Positions 17,904 through 38,644 of a DNA stretch of 64,000 nucleotides are shown piece after piece. Made by a program: the position numbers and the translations under genes. Numbering within the stretch: the stretch's first letter is position 1; every line of letters starts with the position of its first letter. Below the pieces are notes generated by a model that had not been told where the DNA came from, ran no database searches, and saw only the letters and a program-made list of their open reading frames with translations. This DNA is from Rhynchobatus australiae (lineage: Eukaryota), in assembly GCA_034780895.1 (NCBI GenBank), contig JAUZTB010000001.1, forward strand, positions 64,872,976 to 64,936,975, written 5' to 3'.

Positions 17904-18389
17904 CTAGTGGGTGGCCGACATTGACCAGGCTCCTTCCATCCTCCACACGGAGAACGCGTAACTCAGTCTCTCGTGGGCCACATAGCTACAGCTGGACATT
18001 TTTTGGTCCATTTCGTCGCTCTGCAAGACCTGGTAGAGGAAGTCGATGTACCTGGCAGCCAGCTTGAGGGTCTGGATTTTGCTGAGTTTGTCGGACGGCA
18101 GGGTGGGGATGATTTTCCTGAGCGACGAGAACGCCTCGTTGAGAGACTGAGTCCTCTGGCGCTCCCTCACGTTGGCCAGGATCCGCTGATTCTGCAGCTC
18201 CTCGTAAGACTGCGAGCTTGGGCTGGACTTTTTGTTTCTTTTGCCGGGGTTCGGGCTCCCGTCCTCGCTGGATTTTTTGCTGTACCTCCTCTTTATGTCG
18301 TACCTCTTCTGCTGTCTGTCCGCCTCCTCCTCGCTGCTCGCTAGACTGTCCGCCGGAGAAACAGGGGCACTGCTCGGGCTTTCTTGCAT
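17904..18389 (-). CDS. twist2: Twist-related bHLH transcription factor 2 (161 aa; an in-frame ATG at 18404 would add MPSDI)
   Basis: Translation [87 protein letters not shown] contains the Twist bHLH and WR box. [20 protein letters not shown] and the lack of Gly-rich tracts match TWIST2 rather than TWIST1. Confidence 0.95.
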
Positions 18390-18569
18390 GATGTCTGACG
18401 GCATGCCACACCGCCCTGGGAGAGGGGGTTGCGGGAAGGAAAGTAGAAACAGAATCAAAGGAGCAAAGTGACTTATCCTCCCGCTACAGAACAAAACCCG
18501 GGAAAGAACCCCCTTCTCGCCTAAAATGGGGACCGAGTTTGGTAGAGTCAGAAACTTCACCAAGTATTT

Positions 18570-34097: not shown

Positions 34098-34103
34098 TTT
34101 ATT
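34098..34103 (-). promoter_or_regulatory. Candidate polyadenylation signal of the Fer2-like gene
   Basis: AATAAA on the minus strand ~420 nt after the stop codon. Confidence 0.45.
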
Positions 34104-34524
34104 TAGCTTAGTAAAAAAAACAGTTAATAGAGGTCAGCTGGTGGTCGTTCGGGGAACATCCTTTCGCTCTAAGTATCAGCTTCGGTGATTTGCAAGTGTT
34201 TATGTCTTGCAGCTCGGGGAACCCTTGGAAAGGAGATAGCTGGGAACTTAGACTAACTGTTATTTGTGCATTCACAACCTTCGACTCAATATGACTTAAG
34301 TGTCAACGGTGCAAATGAAAGGTAAACCTTAAGTGGTGGTTGCTTATCGCGTCTAGGGGGACAGAGAGAGGAGGCAGGCGCGGAGCCTGGTGAATCGCAC
34401 GGCCTCCAACACGGCGCTGCCGCGCAGGCGCAGTGGCGGCACGAAAGCGCTGAGAAGCAACAGCTGGTCCCCGGGCGTGACGTCACAGCAGGCCGCTGGC
34501 CCAGAACCAACTCACAAACAAGCA

Positions 34525-34562
34525 CTAATCCCACTTTATCCAAGAAAGACGGGCTGTCAGAT
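34525..34562 (-). CDS. Fer2: Fer2-like gene, coding exon 2 (DLTARLSWIKWD*)
   Basis: Acceptor gtttttgttcctttccag|AT CTG ACA GCC CGT CTT TCT TGG ATA AAG TGG GAT TAG. The phase matches exon 1 (577+38 = 615 nt, 204 aa) and restores the Fer2 C-terminal motif WNTSDLTARLSWI.W. Confidence 0.9.
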
Positions 34563-36399
34563 CTGGAAAGGAACAAAAACACGAAAGATAGATAGATGGC
34601 TTTAATTACATTTCAATTAGCATTTGTTTTACAAGCCAAGTAATTAATCCCTCATTTGTAAAGAGCAACTTAATTCATTATATTTATCCAAAGTAACAAT
34701 CAAATTGGTTAACTAAAGCCCAAGGTATAATTGCTGTCAGTGAAACCTTTTTATGGACTGCAGCGCTTCAGGAGTAAGGGTTTAGGCAGCTGGGATATAA
34801 AAAGAACGGCAATACAGCAATCTGCATTGAGTTGTCTGGCATCCTGCACACTGGCATTAAGTTTATATTGACCTGTTAACAAGTATGCGTCAAATATAAT
34901 AATCCTGTTTTGTTAGGAAGGCAGCCTGTTTCTCCAGGAGTCAAAGTTATCCTGGATGGGGCCAGTCATTCGCTTCACTTCCCCTGACAGATCTGTCAGA
35001 CTGTAAAGCTTGAATTAATGGAGAGTGCGTTTTTAATTTACTTTTAGCCATCAGTGCAGTACATAATTTGGGAATGAAATTTCGGACTGAATTGTGTCAA
35101 GGAGAGGAAGGGGCCTCATATTATTTGGGCTTTTGGCTGCCGTGTGAAGTTCGTATCTATTATTTAAAAAAACTGTAACCCACACAACCTCTTGGACATA
35201 ATTGTTAATAATTCTGACAATGAATTATTTGTGCTATGAGAGTCGGTGACTCTGGCTTCATGCGTAGTGCCTGGCCGGAGAGCAATGTGGCCTTGGCATA
35301 ATAGGATTTATTTTAATGATGCTTAGCCTCTCTCCAGGAGTACGTACTGCAGCCGCAGTCCCCACTCTTTTTTTTTCAAACCATTAATTTCAAGGACTAA
35401 AAATTGATGGCAGCGTGCCTGCAACTTCCCGCTGTGCGGGTCCCCCTGTGGGATGAACATTCGCGCCAGAGTTCTACAAGAGGAAAACCGTGCCGGTTAA
35501 CTCAGTCTTTGGTTGGTGTGATCCGTCTCACAAGTTGCGGAAGAAGCTAACTTTGCTCAAACTGGAGAGTTTCTCAGAACAGTACATCATATCAAACCCA
35601 TCAAATGTAACCCACGAAATACCCAGACTCCAAGATGAATGCTGGCACTGTCGGTGTCTTCAAATGGACACCAAGGCAGCCACTGAGCGCCAGGTTTCTT
35701 TCTGAAAACTTGCGCGACCGATCACTCCGACCGAAGACTCAACAATCAACTTATCATGTAGAGAATACGCAGTTGTAGCAACTTTATTCTAGGCAATGTG
35801 TCAGGCTGTACAATAGGACTGATTCGTCTCTCTGGAGGACGGGTGGAGTGGCGGAGGGAGATGGGGGGGGGAATTATCTTCAGCGAGGGAGATGTATCTA
35901 GATTATTTTTGACATTTAAAGTTATTTTGGAAAGAACCACTTAACATGATGATGGAAATGGATTCAATGGCGATTTTTCAAAAGGAGATTGGATTCATAC
36001 TAAAAAAAATGCAGGACTGCATGGAAAGAATAGGGAATTGCGACTGATTGTTTCTTTTTTGGAAGAGCTTACGCATCTCTCTCATTATGTGATCCCTCAT
36101 TGTTAACATTCTATGTAATTGATACAAATAGTAGGTAGCAGCAGAAAGCAGCCATTGTTGGCAAATTAGAGTTCTACCATGTCCACTCCACATTTAAATT
36201 GTTATTTAAATCATTCCTTCACAGTTAATTTTCTTTGATATCTGTTCATGGTAAGTGAGGAAACTGTGTGGTGCAGATGTAGCCCACCCATCGTCATGCC
36301 CACCGGAGCCCATCTGGTAATGTCCCCATGTACGCTTTTGTTATATCCATACTCTACTACTCCAACGCACACGGGCACACACTATCCCCCACAACATTC

Positions 36400-36605
36400 T
36401 GTAACTATATCCAAAACAACACGGGATTGTCCTAAAAAACAATCCTGTTCACTAATGTCTCTCAGGAAAGTAAATACTCGGTTGGACTATATGTGACTCA
36501 ACACCCACGGATGCGGTTGGCTTTAATCCCATTCGGTCCAAGAACAAATAAGGATGGACGATAAATGCCGACGTTGTCAGCTGTGTACGTCCCGTGAACG
36601 AATGA
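36400..36605 (+). mobile_element. SINE 3' fragment (same family as 6595-6855)
   Basis: GGATTGTCCTAAAAAAC..GTTCACTAATGTC..GGACTATATGTGACTC..ACCCAC. Confidence 0.5.
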
Positions 36606-36939
36606 GCAAGGAGAACTCCTTAAACCGTGCGGTTAGTGTTTTATTTCTGCGGTAATAGCGGTGAAATGGAAGGGGCGGGAGATGGGAGTGGGCACGCGGG
36701 ACATGTTCCTTCCATTTATTTTACAAAATAAAAAAACGTGGACAGAAATACAAAGTAGAATCAGGCTAGCATTACAGTTGATTTACATAAATGGCTGCAT
36801 TTTGTATTCAGGTTATTTGTGGTATATTCGTACTCTGTGAAGTATTTAAGTGATACTGTAAGAATCGTCACCACACATTTTCCCTGTATTTAAAGCCTCC
36901 CTTTGCTTGGCTCTTTCTTGCTCTCACATCTCCATCAAA

Positions 36940-37300
36940 AGCTCCTGGGTTGAAACCCCACTCCGGGTAGGGAAGAGATACAAGACCCTGGGCTAACACG
37001 CCAGCGCAACTTTGGTAAATCGATATACTGTGTTAAATATCGCCTTTCAGGTCAGATATTAATTGGAGGCACCTAGGCGGATACTTATCCAATCCGAGCA
37101 ATGGCGTTATCCCTAGTGTCCTGGCTAATATGTATCCCTAAATCGGTATCTCTCCGATAACCCGGTCCTTATTGCTGTTAGGAGGCCGTGTTTGTCGTGT
37201 GCATATTCGCTGCCCCGGTTCCCCCAAATGCTGCAGTGATTACACCTCACTTCAGTCGGCTGTGAAGTGCAGGGATTGCGTTGCTAAGTCTATCATAAAT
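36940..37300 (+). mobile_element. Deu-domain SINE inside the Fer2-like intron
   Basis: GGGTTGAAACCCCACTCC head; GTGTCCTGGCTAATATGTATCCCT..CAGTGATTACACCTC body. Confidence 0.6.
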
Positions 37301-37339
37301 CAGGTCCAGCCGTGGACGACGGCTCTGTGACTATGCCTA

Positions 37340-37625
37340 TGGCCGCGGCGCCGTCTGTGTGGAGTTGCGTGTTCTCCCGGGTGATCGTGTGGATTTTTCC
37401 TCGGGTGCTCCAGTTTCCTTCCATATCCCAATGATATGAGGATTGGTAGGTTAATTGGCCGCTGTAAATTGTCACAAGCGTGTAGGAGAATGGGGTAGAA
37501 TCTGGAGGGAATTGATGGGAATGTGGGGAAAATGGAATGGGATTAGTATAGGATTAATGTAAATGGGTGGTTGATGGTCTGTGCGTACTCGGTGGGCCGA
37601 ACGGCCTGTTTCCTTATTGTATCAA
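37340..37625 (+). mobile_element. V-SINE/HE1-like SINE inside the Fer2-like intron
   Basis: GTCTGTGTGGAGTTGCGTGTTCTCCC..GGGTGCTCCAGTTTCCT..GGTAGGTTAATTGGCCGCTGTAAATTG..GGGCCGAACGGCCTGTTTCC. Confidence 0.8.
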
Positions 37626-38067
37626 AAAAGCGGCACGGTACTGCTACATCTAGGGGTCCAACGCTAATTGGATACAGGGCTGTGAGGCCCATTAAATTCG
37701 GAGTAACACGGAAAAGAGCCCGGCTACCCCCGGTGAGCTGAACAGTTTGCGGAAACACCTTGCTTACCAACTGCTCTCGCTGCTGCAACTTTGCATCTTT
37801 GAAAAGCCAAATTGTTTAGCACTGAAGGAGAAAATAAAATTTTGCAACCAATACTCCAGGATTGTGTTACTCATTGAAAATATGCACTTTTATTTTTAAT
37901 CGTTGATCATTCACTGTACAACCCCATGCAGACAGGTCATGGGGGCCTTTTTGTATCAACAAAGGCTTGCTGCGGGATCAGGCGGATTGTTTCTTGCCAC
38001 TTNNNNAAAGACTTGCTAGTTTCAACTGCAGAAACGAATACTTTATTTAATAAAAGAATCGGCTCAC

Positions 38068-38644
38068 CGCTAGTGTTCCACATTGCATCAGTTTTGTTCT
38101 GGTAGCCACCCTTCATACACTGTTCCACATAAGCCTTGGGGTCACAGCCAGAGAGCAGGATCTCTCGAAGAAGGGCGATGTAGGCTATGGCGAGCCGCAG
38201 AGTGTCAATCTTGGACAGACGTTTCTCGTACGGAAAGGTGGGGACGTGACACCGGAGCTCGTCGAAGGCTGAGTTGATGCTGAGCATTCTTTTCCGTTCC
38301 CTGATGTTGGCCGCGTACCTCTGCACCTTGTAAGGCTGCGAGGAGACCAGCCTGCGTTGCCTTCGCCTGGGATCCGAGGGTTCTTCCAGGCAGGAGCTGT
38401 CCCCTCCAGCACTAGCCTCGATCTGCAAGGCCTGGAGATCCAGATCGGACAGGGCAAACTGCGCATCGGGGAACGCAGTCTGGCAAACGTAGGATGACCA
38501 AGGAGACAGCTGGGGGCTGGCGGGAAGACAGTCGAAATTCAGGCCATCCAACTGGTTCTGGTTCTGATAACTTGAGTCAACCTGACCCCAAAACGACAGA
38601 TCTCCAGCATGGTCCTGATCAAAGTCTAAAAGGCACTCGTCCAT
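38068..38644 (-). CDS. Fer2: Fer2/HLH-13-like bHLH transcription factor (PTF1 family), coding exon 1
   Basis: [72 protein letters not shown] closely matches the Drosophila Fer2 bHLH and post-HLH region as recalled. The exon ends at a phase-1 donor AGC G|GTGAGC. Confidence 0.88.

Follow-up and report, generated by a model that had tools for sequence, protein, structure and literature searches.

An intact Fer2-family bHLH gene beside twist2 in the ray Rhynchobatus australiae

[quoted passage not shown] In Ciona, fer2 (KH.L116.39) is specific to dopaminergic cells and was once called Ptf1a (PMC7596717), while the Gsc/Fer2/Nkx2.1 neurons of Platynereis carry catecholamine and histamine markers (10.1101/2025.10.30.685666). 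C. elegans HLH-13 is placed as the Fer2 orthologue by partial cross-species rescue (PMC4207665), which conflicts with its label as a PTF1a/NATO3 orthologue in PMC11703107; the latter describes hlh-13 as a terminal selector of the octopaminergic RIC and reports that HLH-13, contrary to an earlier account, is not in dopaminergic neurons. A BLAST search of mouse with fly Fer2 is reported to return only Ptf1a, Nato3, Tcf15 and Twist1, and since there was no one-to-one match, Parkinson's-model work on fly Fer2 used a mammalian stand-in, Ptf1a and then Nato3 (PMC8931002). Here we describe a gene of the ray Rhynchobatus australiae that appears to be a true vertebrate member of this family. It lies in a 64,000-nucleotide stretch of contig JAUZTB010000001.1 (assembly GCA_034780895.1), referred to below as the window.

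Gene structure and family membership

The Fer2 gene is intact, single-copy and composed of two exons (Table 1), which join in frame into a bHLH protein of 204 amino acids followed by a stop codon; the exon region occurs once in the ray genome. The initial annotation had proposed an intact gene whose open reading frame (ORF) runs through a splice donor, with a phase-compatible exon 3.5 kb away, and this arrangement stands: the frame is open, the splice sites are present and the two exons fit together across the intron of 3505 nt. The unspliced ORF (38644-37937, minus strand) encodes 235 amino acids. The 30 kb downstream of the donor contain 26 acceptors with a pyrimidine tract, and only the one at 34562 yields the tail typical of the family, which is matched nowhere else in the window on either strand. 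Assembled contigs of two sequencing runs span the intron, and the contig joints shown all fall inside an intronic repeat. Judged by sequence and homology, the junction 38068/34562 holds. To judge from the AATAAA at 34103, the last exon probably measures about 450 nt, 38 of them coding; the earlier description of a 38-nt terminal exon was thus right about the coding nucleotides but left out the inferred 3' untranslated region (UTR).

That exon had also been called hidden, which is true of plain ORF calling but not of annotation. We compared homologues among the best 120 of 1165 matches and, in a second search, the best 120 of 1044; the best homologue among the matches listed is a named stingray protein (194/204 identical). 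Of the C-termini of the first 120, 74 are spliced tails, 42 pass through the donor at one shared codon and 4 are of other kinds. All 33 unnamed contig ORF calls in this set read through, while the 87 named records divide into 74 spliced, 9 read-through and 4 other.

The pattern of substitution was assessed in exon 1, by comparing the ray with contigs of a related organism (run X2). Seven differences were found, six of them silent third positions and one a Leu-to-Met replacement, giving a ratio of replacement to silent change per site (pN/pS) of about 0.05 (128 silent and 422 replacement sites; Fisher p=0.0008), and the intron differs at 89 of 2714 positions. Contig depth falls below 5 at five of the seven coding sites, where some differences may be errors, and this tempers the estimate. 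The selection check proposed in the initial annotation nevertheless points to purifying selection and not to neutrality, and the gene can be regarded as conserved under constraint. These counts also bear on the suggestion that the gene is a relic, or that its true product is the unspliced read-through protein. Nine of the 87 named records do read through the donor, but the read-through tails listed are all unlike one another, whereas the spliced tail is nearly invariant; together with the intact frame and the 6:1 ratio of silent to replacement changes, this makes such a reading hardly credible.

The encoded domain is a class II (group A) bHLH (PF00010, E 5.3e-20) whose best solved matches are TWIST1, NeuroD1 and TAL1; a fold search returned generic bHLH matches only, none at E<=0.001, and Atlas matches were confined to bHLH clusters. 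What distinguishes the protein is its end. The last 16 residues are identical (16/16) to those of the annelid Capitella (ELU03737) and of Saccoglossus, and match in 15/16 positions with Daphnia, 14/16 with amphioxus and with a drosophilid, and 11/16 with Biomphalaria. All 35 aligned rows, which were picked for possessing the tail, keep the tryptophans W189, W200 and W203. Over the bHLH region, identity to Saccoglossus reaches 63/70, against 41/63 to the ray's own Ptf1a and 40/66 to its Fer3; over bHLH and tail together, it amounts to 82/98 with the acorn worm, 73/98 with Capitella ELU03737 and 72/96 with the drosophilid. Drosophila melanogaster Fer2 itself was covered only as the bHLH string given in the supplement of PMC5381572, where Biomphalaria XP_013073777 and Capitella ELU03737 are filed as 48-related/Fer2 (Bao et al. 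2017).

A search of 50%-identity representatives yielded 148 further vertebrate and invertebrate proteins, beyond three already listed or equal to those listed, of which 49 have the spliced tail, 72 read through at the same codon and 27 end otherwise. Thirty proteins, 29 of them representatives, were named by look-up and include Saccoglossus, amphioxus, a crinoid, a hagfish, Daphnia, a tick, a mite, a drosophilid, Biomphalaria, Capitella and others. The recurrence of the intron position among the representatives indicates that it is common to animals far beyond vertebrates, across the bilaterians. The tryptophan tail with an intron inside it is absent from ray Ptf1a and ray Fer3; as a signature, it was derived in this analysis and is not a published definition of Fer2. 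Compared with Fer1/Ptf1a or Fer3, published members of Fer2 are also the nearer match to the ray bHLH, both by identities and by the tree tests given below. As the initial annotation had supposed, then, the ray gene is to be placed among the class II bHLH factors, in the Fer2 (48-related 2) family, an assignment that draws on identity, tail and intron jointly, more than on branch support.

Two observations concern the surroundings of the family. In one metagenome contig (L072:860-1730), a divergent gene of Fer2 type is broken into three pieces or more, with the tail split at the ray position, and may be an HLH-13-like gene of a nematode; the matches listed in the homologue searches include no named sequence of C. 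elegans. Within the ray intron, positions 37370-37610 of the window hold a very high-copy interspersed repeat, probably a short interspersed nuclear element, at which contig depth, about 6 in the surrounding sequence, climbs into the tens of thousands.

Table 1. Positions in the window of the Fer2 gene, its parts and the neighbouring twist gene
Feature	Position	Strand	Remarks
Exon 1, coding part (acidic N-terminal half, bHLH, first half of family tail)	38068..38644	-	577 nt, codons 1-192 plus 1 base; 95% identity to the named stingray protein
bHLH domain, residues 108-159	38168..38323	-	Pfam PF00010; the stingray orthologue is modelled with two helices, predicted local distance difference test (pLDDT) about 75-92
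Phase-1 intron, GT..AG	34563..38067	-	3505 nt; 5' GTGAG, 3' pyrimidine tract and CAG
Last exon, coding part	34525..34562	-	38 nt, 12 residues and stop; finishes the 16-residue Fer2 tail
Inferred 3' UTR	34098..34524	-	About 420 nt, end near AATAAA at 34103; boundary inferred from sequence
twist gene (twist2-type), neighbour	17904..18404	-	About 16 kb downstream of the Fer2 gene, same strand

Relation to Ptf1a, Fer3 and the twist loci

The ray has a separate Ptf1a (C98:30.22 Mb) and a separate Fer3 (C98:63.79 Mb), and the window gene can be set apart from both, albeit with unequal ease, in trees built on about 70 bHLH columns. In a tree of 36 rows, a clade of the vertebrate rows with ray Ptf1a is rejected by the approximately unbiased (AU) test (p=0.001). 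Identity with Ptf1a/Fer1 was discarded on this ground, on the location of the true Ptf1a and on the lack of a WxP motif in the tail. A second tree of 32 rows adds six invertebrate Fer3-like domains, drawn from bHLH matches in 27 metagenome loci; here grouping with ray Fer3 is rejected (AU p=0.004), and so is grouping of the window gene alone (p=0.0008). Identity with Fer3/FERD3L/Nato3 was dropped accordingly, the true Fer3 standing beside twist1 on C98. Several aspects of these trees weigh against a clean assignment. The 20 Fer2-type rows of the 36-row tree form a clade with the weak support of 80/79, the 99/96 support in that tree belonging to the Ptf1a branch, and without the invertebrate Fer3-like rows the Fer3 grouping is not rejected (p=0.205). 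In the 32-row tree, Ptf1a and Fer2 rows make up one unresolved clade (88/87), and Fer2 alone is a clade in 42% of bootstrap trees, with the bootstrap not settled; moreover, the Fer3-like rows behind the rejection of Fer3 come from unnamed metagenome loci.

The neighbourhood of the gene offers a further view of its origin. On C1, the order is class IIa HDAC (plus strand, 64.66 Mb), twist (minus), the Fer2 gene (minus) and TRAF3IP1 (minus, 65.2 Mb); on C98, it is class IIa HDAC (plus, 63.42 Mb), twist (minus, 63.766 Mb) and Fer3 (minus, 63.786 Mb). Order and orientation of the HDAC-twist-bHLH triplet are thus equal on the two, with Fer2 upstream of twist2 and Fer3 upstream of twist1. C71 carries a third twist, facing a third HDAC. 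We take these genes to be twist1, twist2 and twist3 from sequence traits and from human gene order. No third bHLH gene was found near twist2 in the window or in 50 kb on one side and 150 kb on the other, none besides Fer3 in about 40 kb upstream of twist1, and none in 40 kb upstream of twist3 on C71; in each case gaps or split domains could hide one.

The mirrored positions invite the idea that the gene is an ohnologue of FERD3L/Nato3, that is, its twin from whole-genome duplication. It lies on the same side of twist, on the same strand and at the same spacing of about 20 kb as Fer3 does from twist1, and the 36-row tree allows the grouping. The rejections obtained once invertebrate Fer3-like rows are added largely refute it, however, and ray Fer3 lacks the tail, ending just past helix 2, whereas tail and intron are common to invertebrate Fer2. 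Bao et al. (PMC5381572) likewise handle Fer2 and Fer3 as distinct ancient families, older than vertebrates. We therefore consider the ohnologue reading very improbable. The same slot on paralogous blocks, occupied by members of two families that both predate vertebrates, is most simply explained by an ancestral HDAC-Twist-Fer2-Fer3 block followed by reciprocal loss: most likely, after the block was duplicated with the genome, Fer2 survived in its twist2 copy and Fer3 in its twist1 copy. New in the present data is the observation that Fer2 beside twist2 mirrors Fer3 beside twist1, each with a class IIa HDAC. Gene structure, Fer2 family assignment, purifying selection and position next to twist2, taken together, are in our judgement very probably correct.

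Some further features of these loci deserve mention. Ray Fer3/Nato3 (L037:5750-6379, on C98 at about 63.786 Mb) is interrupted by an assembly gap of N letters inside its bHLH loop, the frame being open before and after it; its search scores are low, and the gene could be overlooked. A 12 kb invertebrate contig (L059) carries three Fer3-like bHLH genes, matching the Fer3 clusters known in lophotrochozoans, and in six AT-rich contigs (L051, L052, L053, L057, L062 and L063) the Fer3-like gene is followed, 1-2 kb downstream, by a second bHLH ORF; linkage of NeuroD and Fer3 has been described by Bao et al. (PMC5381572). Just past the stop codon of the ray Fer2 gene, window positions 34300-34499 (minus strand) form a patch with GC 0.64, 19 CpG and a CpG observed/expected ratio of 0.97. 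It includes TGACGTCA at 34485 and GCGC-NN-GCGC at 34431, presumably resembling a CRE and an NRF1 site, respectively. Lying 16 kb upstream of twist2, the patch may be a promoter or enhancer within the 3' UTR.

The tail and the predicted mode of action

The bHLH is canonical, from which dimerization with an E protein and binding to E-boxes would be expected by analogy with the class II family. Fer2 would likely pair with an E protein on E-boxes in a small set of forebrain monoamine-making neurons, which it would specify or maintain. In the AlphaFold2 model of the stingray orthologue, residues 1-91 are disordered and two short helices follow the bHLH, at 169-179 and 191-198, the second with pLDDT of about 54-69. 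The last exon encodes most of the helix 191-198 and two of the three invariant tryptophans. It completes a 16-residue tail that is kept from annelids to rays and is predicted to form a short helix amid these tryptophans; an unspliced product would be without it. The tail is likely a binding surface for a partner protein.

The identity of such a partner brings in the relationship with Ptf1a. The tryptophan motifs of PTF1A are the part that binds RBPJ. One could accordingly propose that the spliced Fer2 tail docks on RBPJ/CSL, producing a PTF1-like trimer with an E protein, as PTF1A binds both RBPJ and an E protein (PMC8508133, PMC8289040). Fer2 and Ptf1a rows share one clade, and the two ray genes each have a phase-1 intron at similar distance past the bHLH and an L-S-W in the last exon. 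This match, however, extends to three residues only, at unequal distance from the junction. No xP follows any of the three tail tryptophans, so that the tail is without the WxP motif of RBPJ cofactors, of which ray Ptf1a has one, and the Fer2 tail is modelled as a helix and not as an extended peptide. Co-folding stingray tail residues 163-204 with the killifish RBPJ core gave a score of 0.00, obtained with alignments not used and with a tool unproven on peptides, and speaks neither for nor against binding. RBPJ is a weak candidate for the partner, and we regard a PTF1-like trimer as unlikely.

Naming, neuronal role and known systems

The named orthologues span sharks, rays, bichir, paddlefish, bowfin, teleosts, coelacanth, turtles, crocodile, lizards, ratites, passerines, wood quail and hagfish; no mammal or amphibian row is found among those named in the two sets of best 120 matches. 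Their records carry the names Ptf1a, Fer3, Tcf15, Tcf21, HLH-13 and si:dkey-34f9.3, and 'Fer2' appears on none of the 120 listed. The initial annotation had expected such genes to be mis-annotated as ptf1a-like or truncated: the names of other genes are indeed on the records, but truncation is not the rule, 74 of the 87 named records keeping the exon. Annotation finds the last exon, and naming is the real failure. Vertebrate Fer2, named or studied, was not found in the literature searched, most subscription journals being outside its reach, nor was the symbol si:dkey-34f9.3, which bears out the view of the gene as poorly characterised. Two kinds of record stand out. Passerine copies (P0162, P0144, P0157 and P0159) match in 53/70 positions of the bHLH region against 62/70 for rhea, a hint of relaxed selection; such copies also fall below the listing cut-off and surfaced only in the search of representatives. 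An amphioxus record (P0411) fuses a sialyltransferase domain to a Fer2 bHLH, probably neighbours joined in the gene model.

In older surveys, fly and zebrafish are credited with two PTFb genes each and mouse, rat and chicken with a single one (PMC2862960), as is Xenopus (PMC3842043); these counts agree in direction with the lack of mammal and amphibian rows among those named. The zebrafish count of two suggests that the gene was tallied there and never followed up. Table 1 of PMC5381572, which lists one human 48-related2 gene, does not sit well with mammalian absence; no human row occurs among 8 of the 18 matches seen in the supplement of that paper.

As for function, the invertebrate data, including RIC, are better described by the term 'monoaminergic' than by 'dopaminergic', and from these relatives we lean slightly towards vertebrate Fer2 acting in monoaminergic neurons. 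Several points speak against so direct a transfer. Clock neurons of the fly likewise require Fer2 (PMC4207665), which also labels cells other than dopamine neurons (PMC13421315). Knockdown of Ciona 'Ptf1a' causes loss of coronet cells (PMC6169837), but PMC7693978 assigns that study to KH.C3.967 and not to KH.L116.39, leaving the gene ambiguous. Data on its expression or function in vertebrates were not found in the literature searched, and its neural role is carried over from other animals. One may ask whether the gene is functional but works elsewhere than in monoaminergic neurons, be it in neurons of another kind, in endocrine cells or, under twist2 enhancers, in mesenchyme, the dopamine role having passed to Nato3 and Ptf1a. 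The gene and twist2 are 16 kb apart, in a conserved block that also holds HDAC-IIa, the Fer2-like dopamine role in mouse is performed by Nato3 (PMC8931002), the action of fly Fer2 in clock neurons fits, and the PTFb counts suggest a gene dispensable in some lineages. On the other side, the family (or hlh-13) is tied to monoamine neurons in four invertebrate lineages, and the identity of 82/98 to the acorn worm over bHLH and tail is consistent with a retained role. We consider a non-monoaminergic function possible but doubtful.

Our best reading, which we hold to be reasonably probable, is that of an intact Fer2-family gene whose product would partner an E protein on E-boxes in forebrain monoamine neurons, and which would derive from the HDAC-Twist-Fer2/Fer3 block. 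A bolder proposal, tentative and rather improbable, is that non-mammalian vertebrates keep true Fer2 as the ancestral bilaterian selector of anterior monoamine neurons, where it would specify hypothalamic dopamine cells contacting the cerebrospinal fluid or the coronet cells of the saccus vasculosus, equated with those of Ciona, and that mammals would have lost it with these cells. Fer2 and Nato3 would then be reciprocal survivors of a Twist-linked pair, which would explain the use of Nato3 in mammals where flies use Fer2.

The protein is already in databases, its family is known and the gene model is ordinary, which limits the weight of the finding. Still, a true Fer2 orthologue exists in fish, reptiles and birds, and its zebrafish copy is open to testing. 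It is now directly testable whether the link between Fer2 and monoamine neurons in flies, annelids and Ciona is also ancestral for vertebrates; the gene supplies the missing vertebrate test of this pan-bilaterian link, together with a pattern of reciprocal retention with Fer3. The argument that Ciona coronet cells correspond to retinal amacrine cells via 'Ptf1a' (PMC3414799) likewise hinges on which gene is meant.

Among described systems, zebrafish si:dkey-34f9.3 (XP_021334761.1) is an orthologue without substantive difference, 142/204 identical and with the same last 16 residues, and the orthologues in sharks, coelacanth, turtles, crocodile, lizards, birds and hagfish similarly go under the names of other genes. 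Drosophila Fer2 (48 related 2, CG5952) and the bilaterian family share with the ray gene the bHLH type, the 16-residue tail and the intron position within it; the aligned jawed-vertebrate proteins end at the tail, whereas protostome proteins continue past it, and the N-terminal half of the bilaterian proteins is not alignable with that of the vertebrate protein. C. elegans HLH-13 is comparable as the selector of a monoaminergic neuron but differs in that this is the octopaminergic RIC, not a dopamine neuron (PMC11703107). FERD3L/Nato3/Fer3 occupies the same slot beside twist and a class IIa HDAC on the paralogous chromosome, and its mouse member Nato3 holds the dopamine role (PMC8931002), yet it is a separate gene on C98, lacks the tail and is rejected as a clade partner. 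PTF1A/Fer1 (p48), the nearest paralogue family in the trees, resembles the ray Fer2 gene in layout, with two exons, a phase-1 intron after the bHLH and tryptophan motifs in the last exon, and is set apart as a distinct gene on C98, of lower bHLH identity, by the WxP motif that the ray Fer2 gene does not have.

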